The notes below the pieces were generated by a model. It was not told where the DNA came from, did no database searches, and saw only the letters and a list, made by a program, of their open reading frames with translations. Position numbers and translations under genes: made by a program. This document shows positions 13,856-58,307 of a DNA stretch of 64,000 nt, piece after piece (positions within the stretch are counted from its first letter, which is position 1; every line of letters begins with the position of its first letter). The stretch is from a virus (Duplodnaviria > Heunggongvirae > Uroviricota > Caudoviricetes). The DNA is taken from positions 1 through 64,000 of IMG/VR virus record IMGVR_UViG_3300014204_000003; one strand, written 5' to 3'.

Positions 13856-13870
13856 AGTAAACCCGGTTTA
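13856..13870. repeat. GTAAACCCGGTTTAC near-palindrome, copy 1
   Basis: Seen in the sequence immediately upstream of the ArfB-like start codon. Confidence 0.8.
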
Positions 13871-13994
13871 CAGTTTGGGCACCCGAGGCCTCGCCACTTT
13901 ATTATGCCCGTCGCCTCCGGGTGCAGAGCGCGTATCTCGATGGACCGCTTATTCTCTGCATCAGAGACTAGGACAACGCCGGAACTCTTCGTAG

Positions 13995-14024
13995 CGGGCC
14001 GCGGGTTAGTGAAATCCCGGGACT
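13995..14024. repeat. 30-bp near-perfect palindrome ggttagtgaaatcccgggacttcactaacc
   Basis: Inverted repeat seen in a GC-rich region of about 300 nt without credible ORFs. The overlapping + and - track ORFs both read LVKSRDFTN through the palindrome. Confidence 0.7.
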
Positions 14025-14169
14025 TCACTAACCTCTCAGATTCCACATCGCCGGCTCACGCGTGTATTGCGAGACAACCACTAGCGCTTCGGTAAGGGTT
14101 TCCCCTCTCGGGCGATACTACAGCGGCGCCGAACATAATGCCGGCGCCGCTCCTCAACCGGCCTCCGCG

Positions 14170-14520
14170 TTATTGGCCTTTAAGTTGAAGCTCGAGCTTC
14201 GCAATTTCATCCTTGAGAGCTTGACGCTTCTCTTCGGCTGGTAACAGGGCTTCCAGTCGGGATTTCTTCTCGCGCAGCATCTTTTCCAAACGATCGGCTT
14301 GTCGAAGAGTGATTTCCTTGCGGATCTCCCTCATCTTGGAATCGAACCAGTCTGGAAGTTCAACATTCAAAGCTTCGAACTCCGCTTGGATCGCTCGTCC
14401 AACCGCTGACAGGGTTACGAGGTCTTCAAGTGCAAGACCTTCAGTTTCGAACTTACGGATGTCATCAATAAGATATGCCATCGGGTTTCCTCCTTTCTTA
14501 GTTTGCTTTCTAGTCGCCAT
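14170..14520 (-). CDS. hypothetical coiled-coil protein
   Basis: 116-aa charged helical sequence. Confidence 0.4.
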   Translation of the reverse strand: MATRKQTKKGGNPMAYLIDDIRKFETEGLALEDLVTLSAVGRAIQAEFEALNVELPDWFDSKMREIRKEITLRQADRLEKMLREKKSRLEALLPAEEKRQALKDEIAKLELQLKGQ

Positions 14521-55162: not shown

Positions 55163-55725
55163 AGATTTATACATCTTTCATTGACAGCCAGTTCGATCAT
55201 TGGATACAATCAATTTGCTTGGTTTCTCTCGGGGGGCTTGCCAGATCGGGGCGGGCTCCCCATTCCTTTTTATACCCCAACCAATTCCAGATAGACACGC
55301 AGCGCGTCATGTGCCAATGCCCAAGAACGCGCAGCTTCGGCGCCTTGGTGCCTGAGTATGTTAGTTATTTTTTTCTTTGGGTATGTTTGTGCGTAGTAGC
55401 GGGCAATCTGATTCTTTTTACGTCCGAGATGACGTACTTTTGCCGCGCCTTTTTTGGGTTTATTAAGGTCTCCCATGATTTTAGCTCCTTTTGAGTTTGC
55501 TAAAGTGTCATAAGAGACCTCCCATGGAGAATGCAGAACCTTGTATCGCACGCTTATTCTAATATTTTTATATATCCTGTCAATTATATTTTGTATAATC
55601 CGGTTGTTATCAGTGGTTATGTTTAGAAATTCAAATAACCGACGAATTACCAATAGCTGCATAAAAAAGGGGCCTCAGCTTGTGGTTGAGGCCCCTGAAA
55701 TATTTATACAAGGAGACCCAAGCTC

Positions 55726-56403
55726 ATGACACTCAAAGAACAGTTCGATTCTTATGGACAGTGGAAAACTCAATTTATCATTGAAGGCCAGAAGTATGGA
55801 GGGATGCATAGCTACAAAGGAGACCCGCGAATCCGGGATTTCTTTGCCTGGTGCGATAAACATGAAAGCATTTTGGAACTCGGTTCCTGCGAAGGCGGGC
55901 ATACTGCTTTATTATCCGAAAAAGCTCAATCGGTAATAGGGATTGAAGGTAAAGAGCATTTAATTAAACGCGCTCAATTTGCCATGCAAGCTCTAGGGAT
56001 TTCTAATTGTGAATTCCGTAAAGCCAATTTCGATGAATGCATCAGCATCTCTGGAATTTTGGAATCGCCCGTTGACGCCGTATTTTGCTCCGGGATTCTC
56101 TACCACCTGAAAAGCCCATGGAATCTAATCAAGGAAATTTCCAAAGTTACTGATCGTTTATACCTAGCAACCCATTATGCTACAGAGAAAGACGCCTTTT
56201 GCGTCGGATACTGTGGCAAGTTTATGGAAGATGGCAGTCCCGATGACTGGGCAGGAATTACTCCCTACGCTTTTTGGTTCACGCTCCCATCTCTCATGGA
56301 TTGCCTCGAGGATAATGGCTTCCACGTTGAACACATCATGGATTGGAAAAAATTCGGAACATCTCCCTACCCGATGGCAGGAATGTTTTGCAGGAGGAAA
56401 TAG
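55726..56403 (+). CDS. class I SAM-dependent methyltransferase
   Basis: ILELGSCEGGHTALLS is motif I (ExGxGxG-like). ILYHLKSP is the motif-II/III region. Confidence 0.65.
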   Translation: MTLKEQFDSYGQWKTQFIIEGQKYGGMHSYKGDPRIRDFFAWCDKHESILELGSCEGGHTALLSEKAQSVIGIEGKEHLIKRAQFAMQALGISNCEFRKANFDECISISGILESPVDAVFCSGILYHLKSPWNLIKEISKVTDRLYLATHYATEKDAFCVGYCGKFMEDGSPDDWAGITPYAFWFTLPSLMDCLEDNGFHVEHIMDWKKFGTSPYPMAGMFCRRK

Positions 56404-56406
56404 CCC

Positions 56407-58296
56407 ATGCACGACTCCGTAATGGATTTTTTGAGAAAGAACTGCAAGCGCGAAGAGTTCGAAGGGAAAAGGGTTCTCGAGATCGGAAGCATCTTCTGGG
56501 ATGTGAGTCCTCGAGATGTCATCATGCCCTTCAATCCTGGACTATATATCGGGATTGATGAACGCCCGGGCAAAGGAGTGGATACGGTAATGTCCGGCTG
56601 CAAGTTATCCAATCGATTTGAACCTGGCTGGATTGACGCGATCATTTGCACAGAAGTTCTCGAGCATGCAAAAGACTGGCGCCGTTTGATTGGGGAGATT
56701 AAACATGTCTTGGCTCCCGGAGGAGTCCTGTATCTGACTTGCCGCGGTGGGAATTATCCATATCACGAGGAACCTCACGATTATTGGAGGTTTTCTGTGG
56801 AAAATATGGAGAGGATCCTCAGCGACATGCTATTCACTGTCACGCCGGACCCTCAATTCCCCGGAGTATTCGCCAAAGCCTTTAAGCTTTCCTCCTCAGA
56901 TGGAGTTCCGGAAGCACATATTTCCTCGGTATATCCCAAGCCGGTATTCCCGCCGACTCATCACCTTTCCCATCAGGGACCTCCGAAAGACCAGTCTATA
57001 AAGTTCACGGTCATAACTCCGACGATCCTCAGGCCGTCATTAAAAACCGCCTGCCGGCGCCTTGAGACACAGACATACAAAAACTGGGAGCACATTGTCA
57101 TGATTGACACTCCCGGCGCCGAGATACCCGACTGGCTATATCATCCCCAAAGGAAAGTCCGGGTTTGCCGAACTCCTCACAATAACGTAGGAAATAGTTG
57201 CCGGTGTAATGCTTGGCCGCTCATAACCGGAGATTACATCCTCTATCTGGATGACGACAACTATTATCACAGCCGCAGTCTGGCTCTCCTTGCAGAAGCT
57301 ATTATGAGAATGGAACCTCGTCCAGAGTGGGGTGTATTCCCAATGGTGCGGCTGGGGCAGGTATTCTTTAATATCTCGCCCGGTAAAAACAGGACCGATA
57401 CCGGTCAATTCTTTCACAAACCTATCATTCACGGGAAAGAAATCAGATACCTGCCATTAAGTGAATACAACGCAGACGGCGAAATGGTCGACAGGCTTTC
57501 CCTGATATGCAAACCAGCTATTATTAATCCGGATATCCCTCTAATAAACATGCCCGTGAGGAGCTTCGGATTAAGAGCTGATGACTTCTCAGCGACAAAT
57601 GAAAGTAACTTTTCGGTTATTATCCCTAATCGGTTCGAGGATGTAATTCAACCTCTCATTCATTCGATCCGGATTCATGAACCTGAGCCTTTGCCAAATA
57701 TCCTGATTGTCGGTGATGGTCATGACCGTGACTATGGATTCTCCAACCTGAGACTGGATTATGAGCGGTTTATATTCTCCAGAAACGCAAATGCAGGAAT
57801 CAAATATGTGGATCCGGATGACGTTATTCTGGTAAACGATGACATCCGCCTCATAATGCCTACCTTCCAGGTTCTTCACCGAGTTATGAGCGAGAATCCC
57901 GATATCGGGATATTGACTCCTTTGGTCGACGGAGGAGTAGGCAATCCCAAACAGATCGCGGAAAATGCACTGACAGGAAAAACCTTCCCTCCTGATTTAA
58001 CCTATTCCGCTTGCACAAAAGACGACTACCTGACCTTCCCTATCGTATGCCTCAGACGAAAGCTCCTCGAGGAGATGCTTTTCAATGAAGATTTTGTGTC
58101 CTACGGGAGAGATGATGCTGACTTCTGTATCCGGGCCGGTCGTTTAGGATGGAAAGCGGCAGTGTGTAACCGGGTCGTGTGCCAGCATGGCATTGGAGGC
58201 CGGGAAAACCTTCGCGGGAAGAACTGGAATACCTCCTACATGAGACGGCAGGAACTTTTGGGCGGAGAAGATATTTTCACAAAGCTTCACGTGTAA
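56407..58296 (+). CDS. multidomain methyltransferase + family-2 glycosyltransferase fusion
   Basis: N-terminal SAM-MTase fold (VLEIGSIFWD...LAPGGVLYLT). Central GT-A module FTVITPTILRPS...LYLDDDNYY with a DxD motif. A second GT-A-like module (SVIIPNRFED...VNDDIRL). Confidence 0.6.
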   Translation: MHDSVMDFLRKNCKREEFEGKRVLEIGSIFWDVSPRDVIMPFNPGLYIGIDERPGKGVDTVMSGCKLSNRFEPGWIDAIICTEVLEHAKDWRRLIGEIKHVLAPGGVLYLTCRGGNYPYHEEPHDYWRFSVENMERILSDMLFTVTPDPQFPGVFAKAFKLSSSDGVPEAHISSVYPKPVFPPTHHLSHQGPPKDQSIKFTVITPTILRPSLKTACRRLETQTYKNWEHIVMIDTPGAEIPDWLYHPQRKVRVCRTPHNNVGNSCRCNAWPLITGDYILYLDDDNYYHSRSLALLAEAIMRMEPRPEWGVFPMVRLGQVFFNISPGKNRTDTGQFFHKPIIHGKEIRYLPLSEYNADGEMVDRLSLICKPAIINPDIPLINMPVRSFGLRADDFSATNESNFSVIIPNRFEDVIQPLIHSIRIHEPEPLPNILIVGDGHDRDYGFSNLRLDYERFIFSRNANAGIKYVDPDDVILVNDDIRLIMPTFQVLHRVMSENPDIGILTPLVDGGVGNPKQIAENALTGKTFPPDLTYSACTKDDYLTFPIVCLRRKLLEEMLFNEDFVSYGRDDADFCIRAGRLGWKAAVCNRVVCQHGIGGRENLRGKNWNTSYMRRQELLGGEDIFTKLHV

Positions 58297-58307
58297 ACCG
58301 GGTTTAC
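58293..58307. repeat. GTAAACCGGGTTTAC palindrome, copy 6 (contains the GT-gene stop codon)
   Basis: Seen in the sequence. The TAA stop of 56407..58296 lies inside the palindrome. Confidence 0.8.

Follow-up and report, generated by a model that had tools for sequence, protein, structure and literature searches.

A dispersed palindrome with invariant arms as a possible protein-binding site in a tailed phage genome

Results

A 15-bp palindrome recurs across the phage genome

The window analysed here is a 64-kb stretch of the genome of an uncultivated tailed phage, about 83% of it coding, and belongs to a contig of 106,964 bp (ENA ERZ27247350 k141_1167818). It contains seven copies of the palindrome GTAAACC-N-GGTTTAC with perfect arms, against approximately zero expected. 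Five of these are exact copies of GTAAACCSGGTTTAC (13857, 21297, 44505, 46812 and 58293), a sequence for which 100 dinucleotide shuffles returned no match. When up to three mismatches were allowed, the window gave nine matches versus 0.89 expected. A de novo tally of all palindromes of the k-N-k type identified this 7-N-7 motif as the only recurrent one, the runner-up being three copies of 5-mers. Beyond the window, the same contig carries an additional exact copy approximately 350 nt to the left and, to the right, a copy with one mismatch inside a coding sequence. The copies and associated structures in the window are as follows; copies of the palindrome alone are given without a strand.

13857-13871, motif copy 1, GTAAACCCGGTTTAC, 1 nt before ATG 13855, the start of the ArfB-like gene 13499-13855(-)
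21297-21311, motif copy 2, holding the TAA stop (21310-21308) of 21308-21595(-)
25773-25787, copy with one mismatch, GTAAACCCGGTATAC, in coding sequence 24986-25987(-); the identical variant is present in the relative L019
30748-30762, symmetric two-mismatch variant, GTCAACCCGGTTGAC, in coding sequence 30108-30941(-); a candidate copy
33081-33095, perfect-arm copy with an A/T centre (CCAGG), covering codons 4-8 (V-N-L-V-Y) of ORF 32811-33104(-)
44505-44519, motif copy at the head of a leftward gene block, 33 nt upstream of ATG 44471 of a putative HU-like gene
46804-46834, plus strand, site A, with the motif (46812-46826) at the apex of a sense-strand stem-loop of at least 13 bp
46835-46851, plus strand, second covarying hairpin directly 3' of site A, followed by the Shine-Dalgarno-like stretch GGGGAAAGCAGAGAGA
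51885-51921, plus strand, site B, with the motif (51896-51910, centre A) at the apex of a 16-bp sense-strand stem-loop
51922-51935, plus strand, second hairpin after site B (CTCCGC…GCGGGG), followed by GGGGAAAGAGAGAAG
58293-58307, motif copy at the end of a rightward operon, holding the TAA stop (58294-58296) of 56407-58296(+)

A sequence-only reading of this DNA had proposed at least six repeats of the palindrome, and the seven perfect-arm copies and the empty shuffles bear this out. Most of its coordinates hold, with two copies placed one base off (13856 for 13857 and 46811 for 46812); it rightly described 51896 as a variant with a CCAGG centre and 25773 as a degenerate copy within a coding sequence, where we count one mismatch. 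Its list missed the copies at 33081 (perfect arms) and 30748 (the double variant).

Of the seven perfect-arm copies, six are either non-coding or sit on a stop codon. This agrees with the earlier statement that full copies are intergenic or overlap stops; the TAAs of 21308-21595(-) and 56407-58296(+) both fall inside GTAAAC. The settings comprise short spacers between co-directional genes, positions before start codons or on stops, an operon start and an operon end, and the distance from motif to start codon in this genome ranges from 1 to 42 nt. Transcription probably crosses every copy.

The ArfB-like gene heads a tRNA cluster and its product contains an RF-1 domain (E=4e-15), so that the copy reported just upstream of its start was correctly assigned, with a gap of 1 nt. 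This copy is kept in the relatives L019 and L009 at 3 and 4 nt from the ATG, respectively, within diverged flanks. Motif copy 2, which is located 10 nt upstream of the ATG (21286) of a 56-aa ORF, is missing in both relatives; each is 10 nt shorter there, indicating the gain or loss of a site. A conserved AT-rich block (…GCATATATAAA) precedes the 44505 copy by 9 nt; in the ortholog (L011 7607) the two elements are 10 nt further apart. The 58293 copy, with orthologs at L028 817 and L033 5996, marks the convergent junction between a methyltransferase/glycosyltransferase gene, 56407-58296(+), and dnaB. Of the two mirror-image changes that make up the 30748 variant, A3>C and T13>G, single occurrences of one or the other are found in the 33757/22664 phage family.

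The arms are invariant in related phages

To assess conservation, we compared the window with two relatives of approximately 109 kb and approximately 70-80% nucleotide identity, in 16 pairwise comparisons of six orthologous sites in three genomes. All 224 of 224 arm bases (14 per site) are identical, versus 51% of the ±30-nt flanks, which also contain indels. The central base varies in four of the six groups of orthologous sites. Variation confined to the centre of the dyad is as predicted for a symmetric dimer on duplex DNA, and is the opposite of what loop-reading hairpin binders would produce. Perfect-arm copies inside coding sequences occur in the relatives (L019 9342 / L021 4431), as at 33081 in the window. 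In L033, a 17-nt insertion beside the motif repeats the upstream flank exactly in reverse complement, apparently a signature of template switching. These comparisons support the view that the motif is recognised in a sequence-specific manner and that purifying selection on it is strong.

Two copies form the tips of long stem-loops

The palindromes at 46812 and 51896 extend into long stem-loops, which must form in mRNA too. Site A, where the sequence-only reading had correctly extended the palindrome to CGTGTAAACCCGGTTTACACG, folds with -24.7 kcal/mol (z = -2.8), shows changes on both sides at four stem pairs among the three genomes, and ranks third-longest among the short-loop inverted repeats of the window. 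Site B ranks second-longest and folds with -32.9 kcal/mol (z = -3.8); its stem pairs have changed once in a compensatory way and four times on one side only (G·U/G-C), with the wobbles all on the plus strand. The two sites are the longest intergenic hairpins of the window, with stems of 13-17 bp, and their extensions covary, with six G·U wobbles and no A·C pairs on the sense strand. These covarying sense-strand stems, which had previously been overlooked, point to a role at the transcript level, at least at these two sites. The spacing to the following gene is also fixed at site A, where ATG 46869 lies exactly 42 nt past the motif in all three genomes. For site B the downstream start codon is likely ATG 51953, 42 nt past the motif; an alternative ATG at 51911, which abuts the motif, is not kept in L003.

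Candidate readers encoded in the genome

The candidate DNA-binding proteins of the window comprise two XRE-type helix-turn-helix (HTH) proteins, confirmed here as previously proposed, a GcrA/D5-like HTH protein and a possible HU-like protein. For the last of these, the motif upstream of the gene stands as described, whereas the HU identity does not: the protein has no sequence match in Pfam, PHROGs or the PDB, and its AlphaFold model (pLDDT 48) resembles HU only in the order of its helices and strands. Neither XRE gene is preceded by a copy of the motif and thus neither has an autoregulatory site, and no homologues of these candidate proteins were detected in other motif-bearing phages. Neither homologue tracking nor motif placement pinpointed a cognate binder among them. 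The approximately 83 kb of this genome that we examined yielded neither a phage RNA polymerase nor a sigma factor; within the window we recognised no RNA-binding protein or RNase, and found no ParB-like protein. Nothing transposase-like or integron-like is associated with the motif sites. The sole recombinase observed, 54483-55067, is an ordinary short tyrosine recombinase that adjoins a tRNA-Met gene.

The same word and a sister motif in other genomes

The same core, in extended form, occurs at least 20 times in unrelated phage contigs of approximately 47 kb. The identical 15-mer is thus used by unrelated phages with GC contents of 46%, 51% and 72%, and the only genes that the window shares with the other motif-bearing phages encode an HNH endonuclease and a small DNA methyltransferase. 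This use of one word by unrelated phages had escaped the sequence-only reading. In the 33757_192/22664_274 contigs, 14 of 16 single-arm mismatches are uncompensated and have no sense-strand wobble bias, in our reading of the listed sites. Their flanks (CCTAT…AWAGG) are kept as sequence with no covariation, as are those of a Desulfofustis phage (TGCTAT…ATAGCA), and in both a G almost always stands four bases past the motif (AWAGG or ATAGCA). More generally, half-sites in other phage families degenerate independently, without compensation.

A cultured-phage relative of the 33757 family, with approximately 40% amino-acid identity over replication and packaging genes, carries nine copies of a different inner core, GTCCCAANTTGGGAC, in the same 7-1-7 arrangement and shares the outer flanks CTATGT…ACATAG. 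Such a changed core in an unchanged geometry is as expected if a binding protein and its sites co-evolve. Three of the nine copies are located 9 nt from a perfect TATAAT, which places the left arm at the -35 position, and GTCCCAANTTGGGAC is multi-copy in many other viral contigs. For the sister motif in the L208 group, the centre base is a sense-strand G at every intercistronic site with a clear downstream gene. In one sister-motif phage a polyvalent protein of 1572 aa includes an ECF-type sigma domain, and ParB_N-methylase fusions occur in Desulfofustis-type phages bearing the sister motif. In cellular genomes the motif is single-copy in 120 bacterial/archaeal genome matches, 113 of them inside long ORFs; there it behaves like a random word and is not a host regulon.

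Comparison with known dispersed elements

Of the described elements, the nearest analogue is the 17-bp repeat of Cluster O mycobacteriophages, TGTTCGGNNNCCGAACA (Cresawn et al. 2015, PMC4351075). This perfect inverted repeat is dispersed over the genome; its 7-bp arms never vary and its centre does. Most copies occupy short intergenic spaces or the 5' ends of genes, and some fall within genes; relatives have lost sites, their orientation is uncoupled from transcription, and the repeat does not occur in the host genome (PMC4351075). Its authors proposed that a dimeric protein binds it and gave its function as not known (PMC4351075). Arms, centre, placement in spacers and at 5' ends, occasional copies within genes, loss of sites and independence of the direction of transcription are all shared with the present motif. 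The Cluster O spacer is 3 bp rather than 1 bp, and that repeat reaches more than 30 copies per ~70-kb genome, compared with about eight here per 107 kb. Only one phage cluster has that repeat, whereas the present core is common to unrelated phage groups, and only here are two copies elaborated into long stem-loops.

The CIRs of phiC31, reportedly operators of a repressor, c, that autoregulates its own gene, are likewise a conserved palindromic operator with many intergenic copies across a temperate phage genome, served by one phage repressor. There the binder is known and autoregulating; here the binder is putative, no copy stands at a regulator gene, and the only hint of a temperate lifestyle is the short tyrosine recombinase beside the tRNA-Met gene. 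Stoperators of cluster A mycobacteriophages are sites at which the repressor (L5 gp71) blocks elongating RNA polymerase (PMC9283540, PMC6550527). They too are numerous in short intergenic spacers within operons, but they are asymmetric, 13-14 bp long, read by a monomer and orientation-dependent, whereas the present motif is a perfect dyad. The OB operator of KorB on plasmid RK2 (TTTAGCSGCTAAA) occurs in about 12 copies over a replicon of about 60 kb and serves a global regulator, with some copies at promoters and others promoter-distal. It shares with our motif the odd length, a central S and the dispersal of copies; KorB is, however, a ParB-family protein, a type not found in the window.

Among RNA elements, lambda boxB and the RNase III sites of T7 and SP82 are intercistronic hairpins of early transcripts (15 nt or longer), which sites A and B resemble in form. 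Lambda nut/boxB has two copies per genome, with an adjacent boxA, and it is the loop that its reader recognises. The present motif differs in having a free loop centre, more copies and no conserved boxA-like element. N4 early promoters are hairpins with a 5-7-bp stem and a 3-nt loop; stem length, loop size, conserved stem sequence and position upstream of genes match our motif. Their use requires a specific purine in the loop, a hairpin on the template strand and a giant virion RNA polymerase, none of which was found here.

Discussion

Our tentative best explanation of the sequence data is that the dispersed copies serve a phage-encoded dimeric protein as operators or roadblock sites. The operator for a dimeric regulator that had been proposed from sequence thus survives in part: the 14 arm positions are invariant and only the centre is free, while no copy precedes the XRE genes and no homologues of the candidate binders were detected in the other motif-bearing phages. 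Perfect-arm copies in coding sequences, in the window and in relatives, count in favour of DNA as the target. On the other side of the account stand the failure to pinpoint a cognate protein, the covarying sense-strand stems at sites A and B and the probable transcription of every copy. A scan found no sigma-70-type promoter at the motif sites, so that classical operators that occlude a promoter are not demonstrated for this genome.

The main competing explanation, which we regard as possible if somewhat doubtful, is that the motif is read as an RNA hairpin (a 6-bp stem GUAAAC/GUUUAC and a 3-nt loop) by a sequence-specific RNA-binding protein or endoribonuclease. Such elements in 5'UTRs and intercistronic spacers would control the processing, stability, antitermination or translation of the neighbouring cistron, as do lambda N with boxB, Cas6-type stem readers and the global translational repressor T4 RegA. 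Probably transcribed positions 0-45 nt upstream of starts in three phage families, often abutting a Shine-Dalgarno sequence, fit this well, as do sites A and B with their two-sided changes, sense-only G·U pairs, second covarying hairpins, fixed 42-nt spacing and rank as the longest intergenic hairpins; the sense-strand G of the L208 group agrees with it as well. Other evidence counts against it. The bare fold reaches only -2.1 kcal/mol (z = -1.2), approximately 20 sites of the window family show zero compensatory stem changes, the most exposed loop base is free, and arm and flank mismatches in other families are uncompensated and lack a sense-wobble bias. Ribosomes would unfold the stem at perfect copies in coding sequences and where it includes a stop codon, mutation alone can extend a palindrome, as the template-switch-like insertion in L033 illustrates, and no suitable RNA-binding protein or RNase was recognised in the window. 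The two readings may also coexist: Aca2 is a single HTH protein reported to read both DNA and RNA, and the same is possible for this motif.

Three further explanations carry less weight. An improbable one is a mobile or recombinogenic linker that has no dedicated trans-acting reader, spreads between co-infecting phages and marks cassette boundaries, as in the PeSL cassettes of T4-type phages, with the hairpin extensions as by-products of template-switch mutation. It would account for an identical core in phages sharing only mobile genes, for the 10-nt indel at copy 2, for the L033 insertion and for the homology breaks at motif sites: upstream of site C L033 is unrelated and downstream it is homologous, a ~270-nt insertion adjoins the ArfB site, and in 015039 the stretch from 44505 to site A has no nucleotide-level homology. 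Cluster O repeats, moreover, recombine with each other (PMC4351075). However, invariant arms within flanks of 51% identity require purifying selection on every base, for which second-order selection on shuffling is unlikely to suffice; transposase-like or integron-like machinery is not tied to the sites, and a 1-bp spacer does not suit the one tyrosine recombinase. A phage-specific promoter, whether duplex and read by a phage sigma factor or RNA polymerase or an extruded hairpin of the N4 kind, with transcription starting a few bases past the motif, is decidedly improbable and fits poorly as the alternative it had been proposed to be. The stem-loop geometry, the gene or conserved non-coding stretch after almost every copy, the near-constant G four bases past the motif in the 33757/22664 family and the Desulfofustis phage, and the ECF-type sigma domain speak for it. 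Against this, the polymerase or sigma factor is missing from the ~83 kb surveyed, the ArfB start at 1, 3 or 4 nt in three genomes would imply leaderless transcripts with a shifting start, and starts here vary from 1 to 42 nt past the motif. The window family has no conserved initiation sequence after the motif, site C lies 24, 27 or 45 nt from a conserved TATAAT, and no fixed -10/-35 geometry exists. N4 depends critically on the loop-centre base, which is free here; the wobbles at sites A and B are biased to the non-template rather than the template strand, and copies occur inside coding sequences and at a convergent operon end. Ordinary factor-independent terminators or mRNA-stabilising hairpins are highly improbable, for all that the sequence is palindromic, two copies sit on stop codons (one closing an operon) and the stem-loops of sites A and B are stable. 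None of the copies has a T-tract downstream, as had been noted in discounting an intrinsic terminator, and the 15-mer alone folds with only -2.1 kcal/mol. A canonical terminator with a U-run at 58420-58460, 120 nt downstream of the 58293 copy, indicates that the host uses classical terminators; nor can structure alone account for an invariant sequence common to unrelated phages. The copies thus have neither terminator nor promoter anatomy.

For the operator or roadblock reading, we infer that the reader is a phage-encoded protein acting on duplex DNA. Most likely a symmetric dimer, it would bind each GTAAACC half-site on double-stranded DNA at no fewer than eight places along the genome: short, probably transcribed intergenic spacers, the start of the leftward block and the end of the rightward operon. 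Bound there, it would modulate transcription, repressing at the operon start and acting as a roadblock or insulator inside operons and at their ends, in a mode resembling that of the phiC31 repressor at CIRs, KorB at OB or cluster A repressors at stoperators. Unchanged in relatives and present in unrelated phages, the motif is almost certainly recognised by some regulatory factor, which may read it as DNA or as RNA.

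A recurrent 15-bp palindrome in the window

The motif is a dispersed 15-bp palindrome with a 7-1-7 geometry, in which two 7-bp arms flank a free central base. Its exact form, GTAAACCSGGTTTAC, occurs five times in the window (13857, 21297, 44505, 46812 and 58293) and in none of 100 dinucleotide-preserving shuffles. With up to three mismatches allowed, the window contains nine sites against 0.89 expected, and when all k-N-k palindromes were counted de novo, the motif proved to be the only one that recurs in the 64-kb window. Two further copies, at 51896 and 33081, combine perfect arms with a CCAGG centre. 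Coding sequence, which makes up about 83% of the window, is avoided by six of the seven perfect-arm copies. The positions given in the sequence-only reading proved correct to within one base, and the copies at 51896 and 25773 were upheld; those at 33081 and 30748 had been overlooked.

Copies of the motif in the window, placed in the orientation of the downstream gene
13857: 1 nt 5′ of the ATG of the ArfB-like gene
21297: TAA of the upstream gene inside the motif; next ATG 10 nt further
44505: 33 nt 5′ of the ATG of the gene that heads the leftward block
46812 (site A): stop codon 15 nt before, ATG 42 nt after
51896 (site B): stop codon 18 nt before, ATG 42 nt after
58293: includes the TAA that closes the rightward operon's last gene; convergent junction
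33081: within a small ORF, codons 4–8
25773: one mismatch; inside a CDS
30748: symmetric double variant GTCAACCCGGTTGAC

Conservation in related phages

In a scan of IMG/VR, the exact word was found in 55 stretches, with 15 of its copies in two contigs of ~109 kb (3300037067_017859 and 3300037067_015039) that are 68–87% identical to the window where aligned. At orthologous sites, 224 of 224 arm bases are identical (16 pairwise comparisons across six site groups, 14 bases each), while the flanks (±30 nt) show 51% identity and many indels. The central base, which can be C, G or A, varies within four of the six orthologous groups and is uncoupled from gene direction in the window family. Sites are also gained and lost. 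The spacer that corresponds to site 21297 lacks 10 nt in each of the two relatives, which in turn carry a perfect in-frame copy (V-N-P-V-Y) in a metallopeptidase-like gene, where the window has a proto-site matching at 8 of 15 positions. The motif is under very strong selection.

On the 3′ side of the 58293 copy, a block (CCTCGTATAATGNCNCAGGA…) is conserved in all three genomes and is followed, after ~115 nt, by a strong bidirectional terminator (58420–58460). This segment, 58308–58465, has no Rfam match and could encode a small RNA between the converging operons.

Predicted stem-loops at two copies

At sites A and B and their orthologs, the flanks stretch the palindrome to 13–17 bp and place the motif at the apex of a sense-strand stem-loop, with predicted folding energies of −24 to −35 kcal/mol and z-scores of −2.8 to −5.4. 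By length, the two sites rank second and third among the short-loop inverted repeats of the window. Across the three genomes, four stem-extension pairs are altered on both sides at site A, together with three in a second hairpin after it; at site B, one pair is altered on both sides and four on one side only, as G·U/G-C changes. Every wobble pair at the two sites lies on the sense strand, and the distance from motif to ATG is exactly 42 nt in all three site A orthologs. Column-by-column alignment of the second hairpins failed between the two sites, and a joint covariance model was therefore dropped. No Rfam match was obtained at the motif sites or in the adjoining structured regions.

These predicted stem-loops are the strongest evidence for a transcript-level role. 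The 15-mer core itself pairs without compensatory change at any site; the extensions covary, but in three genomes only and with a template-switch origin possible. In the relative 015039, a 17-nt insertion beside the operon-end copy (L033 5996–6040) reproduces the upstream flank exactly in reverse complement (TAATAAGTTGTAAA / TTTACAACTTATTA). A reverse-complement insertion at a palindrome is the signature of template-switch mutation, and this one looks like such a (quasipalindrome) event caught in the act. Stems of this kind could therefore be extended without selection.

Genomic setting

The window belongs to a metagenomic contig of 106,964 bp (ENA ERZ27247350 k141_1167818). It encodes recognisable tailed-phage proteins (portal and large terminase), replication proteins (DnaB, a DnaC-like loader and SSB), an ArfB-like RF-1-domain protein and a PurA-like enzyme. 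Genes run leftward from 1 to 44471, rightward from ~45300 to 58296 and leftward again from 58463. Megablast of 12 kb revealed no nucleotide-level similarity to cultured phages, the terminase reaches at best 27% identity to that of any cultured phage, and a search for further relatives via DnaB returned just one distant locus. In a relative's contig, a 4330-residue protein with SNF2/ResIII helicase domains (L315 1–56, running beyond that locus) is encoded directly to the right of the region matching the window's right flank.

Other features of the window
4165–4752 (+): HNH_3 homing-type endonuclease, encoded between the genes for portal and terminase but on the other strand; 34% identical to L176 8042–8524, from the 22664_274 phage
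10298–13301, 17804–17881 and 55086–55163: 12 tRNA genes, 10 of them clustered directly downstream of the ArfB-like ribosome-rescue gene
13872–14169: G+C-rich, highly structured intergenic insert of ~270–300 nt upstream of the ArfB-like gene, with a 19-nt palindrome at 14004–14033; missing from both relatives, no Rfam match
21000–21028: perfect 29-bp palindrome (CGTAAGATTCTCCA-T-TGGAGAATCTTACG) inside ORF 20797–21105 (−), which is KTSC-like by eye only
22628–23905 (−): adenylosuccinate-synthetase homologue that keeps the GDEGKG motif
26038–26313 and 40738–40989: two XRE HTH proteins
42846–43724 (~880 nt): no convincing ORF or tRNA, no Rfam match
44520–45316 (~800 nt): divergent control region with AT-rich blocks kept in relative 015039; no convincing ORF or tRNA, no Rfam match at the gathering threshold
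53387–54031 (+): small DNA methyltransferase (phrog_757), 51% identical to Desulfofustis phage 33475–34044; no Pfam match
54483–55067: short tyrosine recombinase (194 aa), adjoined by a tRNA-Met gene

The 29-bp palindrome is probably a coding coincidence. The best PDB matches of the 22628–23905 product are cellular PurA proteins; a PurZ or Z-genome (2-aminoadenine) assignment was rejected, and the gene is probably an ordinary PurA-type auxiliary gene. Beside the methyltransferase, we note that the centre of the motif reads CCNGG. Sigma-70-like promoters seen by eye near the 44505 copy, in the control region 44520–45316, fail the scanner's criteria and are therefore treated as conserved AT-rich blocks and no more.

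Occurrence in unrelated phages and a sister motif

The same core occurs in contigs unrelated to the window. In two of them, 3300033757_000192 (47 kb) and 3300022664_000274, 20 or more copies share the longer consensus CCTAT-GTAAACCNGGTTTAC-AWAGG and are located 4–25 nt before start codons on both strands; a 72%-GC contig (L053) has two copies of the word. The only gene common to the window and the 33757/22664 phages is the HNH endonuclease. Among the sites listed for these phages, 14 of 16 single-arm mismatches are uncompensated, without bias to sense-strand wobbles, and the flanks are kept as sequence rather than as pairs. The sole orientation-linked asymmetry is AAAGG on the gene side, which reflects the overlap of this flank with the Shine-Dalgarno sequence. 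A T7-like promoter was rejected for the 33757 family, in which no RNA polymerase was found in 29 kb and genes lie on both strands.

The nearest cultured relative of these phages is Desulfofustis phage LS06-2018-MD01 (OP947158), with ~40% amino-acid identity over polymerase, primase, ligase, portal and terminase. The GTAAACC motif is absent from OP947158, which instead carries nine copies of TGCTAT-GTCCCAANTTGGGAC-ATAGCA, a sister motif with the same 7-1-7 geometry and the outer bases in common. Three of the nine lie 9 nt from a perfect TATAAT, so that the left arm falls at the −35 position. The sister word GTCCCAANTTGGGAC also occurs in several copies each in many other IMG/VR contigs, whose GC contents differ, is often framed by TGT…ACA, and usually follows the stop codon of a small gene and precedes the ribosome-binding site (Shine-Dalgarno) of the next.

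Loci carrying the sister motif GTCCCAANTTGGGAC
L193 (OP947158): 249, 2251, 7688, 15474, 23059, 29970, 37113, 41281, 42977
L208: 9080–13905, 10 copies in 5 kb
Also L196, L244, L275 and L277

A phage carrying GTCCCAA palindromes encodes a 1572-aa polyvalent-type protein (L232 8396–13114, −) with an embedded ECF-type sigma module (Sigma70_r2 and r4_2, residues ~640–845), which may be an injected sigma factor. The 1577-aa protein of OP947158, considered as an N4-like RNA polymerase, found no support in PDB or PHROGs, and its sole match was an LPD38 domain.

Possible functions of the motif

The sequence-only reading held that the motif is not an intrinsic terminator, and the analysis agrees. The 15-mer alone folds to −2.1 kcal/mol, no copy is followed by a T-tract, and terminator scans did not report the motif sites. 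Given this weak core fold, the missing T-tract and the canonical terminator with a U-run at 58420–58460, the terminator reading was rejected, and a plain terminator or stabiliser is extremely improbable. A phage-specific promoter element, raised in the same reading, is contradicted by several observations and is very improbable. The distances to the start codon and to −10-like sequences both vary (at site C, seemingly the operon-end site, the closest conserved TATAAT is 24, 27 or 45 nt away), the initiation region lacks conservation, some copies lie in CDSs and one at an operon end, and the ~83 kb examined of the 106,964-bp genome yielded neither an RNA polymerase nor a sigma factor. Sigma-70 scans gave just weak 9-of-12 matches overlapping the 58293 copy, no commoner than in shuffles, and nothing at the other motif sites. 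The motif, as GTAAAC-CNG-GTTTAC, does have the short stem (5–7 bp in N4-type promoters) and the 3-nt loop of an N4-type promoter. N4 promoters, however, combine a central loop purine with a template-strand hairpin and a virion RNA polymerase, whereas here the loop centre varies, the wobbles favour the sense strand and the ~83 kb yielded no polymerase. Pfam and PHROGs searches of ~100 ORFs in the window likewise returned no ParB, sigma factor or RNA polymerase. In cellular genomes the motif acts as a random word: there are at least 120 bacterial or archaeal matches, each single-copy per 8-kb locus among the matches listed, and 113 of the 120 listed fall within ORFs of 80 aa or more. The idea of a hijacked host transcription-factor regulon is therefore unlikely and was rejected.

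The reading we tentatively favour, at somewhat less than even confidence, is that a phage-encoded dimer would bind the motif as a dispersed operator or roadblock. The dyad hallmark of the operator proposed in the sequence-only reading stands, with conserved half-sites (arms 224/224) around an unconstrained centre. Several features suggest a symmetric dimer on duplex DNA: variation is confined to the dyad centre, with every arm base invariant; in the larger families each half-site decays on its own; CDSs and stop codons tolerate perfect copies; and related phages differ in core sequence but keep the geometry. An operator of this type would go with a cognate regulator encoded by the same phage, as a rule together with a site through which that regulator controls its own gene. 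No motif copy lies upstream of either XRE gene, and the sole DNA-binding-like gene preceded by a copy is a putative HU-like ORF, an identity that did not receive confirmation. BLAST and phmmer found no DNA-binding protein common to motif-bearing phages, which share only the HNH endonuclease, the small methyltransferase, SSB and DNA polymerase A. With XRE genes lacking sites, the HU-like assignment unconfirmed and no candidate shared, we name no binder, and this part of the earlier proposal was not sustained. Recognition of the motif as an RNA hairpin by a protein, possibly the same one reading both forms, is somewhat unlikely. In its favour, all copies are probably transcribed, ribosome-binding sites lie near them, and sites A and B form covarying sense-strand stems. 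A mobile or recombination linker, in which the motif would have no dedicated reader, is quite improbable. On the broadest view, GTAAACCNGGTTTAC and its sister GTCCCAANTTGGGAC would form one widespread, undescribed class of phage cis-element: 7-1-7 palindromes in a TGT…ACA frame, located after the stop codon of one gene and before the ribosome-binding site of the following one, read by a portable phage-encoded factor (possibly as duplex operator and RNA hairpin) that controls whole gene blocks, and serving also as junctions for cassette exchange between unrelated phages. We regard this composite proposal as speculative and distinctly unlikely.

Relation to known systems and significance

Dispersed palindromes of this kind are known from phiC31 (CIRs) and from KorB (OB sites). 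The stoperators of cluster A mycobacteriophages are asymmetric 13–14-bp sites of fixed orientation, in contrast to the present perfect palindrome, whose centre is uncoupled from gene direction. Lambda-type nut sites depend on boxA and on the loop, whereas here the flanks of the 15-mer show no conserved sequence and the centre of the loop can vary. The Cluster O mycobacteriophage repeats are likewise dispersed perfect palindromes in a phage genome, and their similar behaviour further argues for a symmetric dimer (PMC4351075). A full-text search of the searchable literature found neither motif sequence. This word, its use by unrelated uncultivated phages, its two-site stem-loop elaboration and the abundant sister word thus appear to be undescribed so far.

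The motif finding is real, and its importance hangs on its reader. Should that reader turn out to be an ordinary repressor, the motif would add a new member to a known class, useful but not surprising. Few regulatory signals can be recognised straight from the sequence of uncultivated phages, and dispersed palindromes with perfect conservation are one of them. The identity of the reader would give a handle on the timing of gene expression in phages that resist cultivation, would account for the repeats of the Cluster O type, which are just as unexplained, and could supply synthetic biology with a compact orthogonal pair, either operator and regulator or RNA hairpin and binder.
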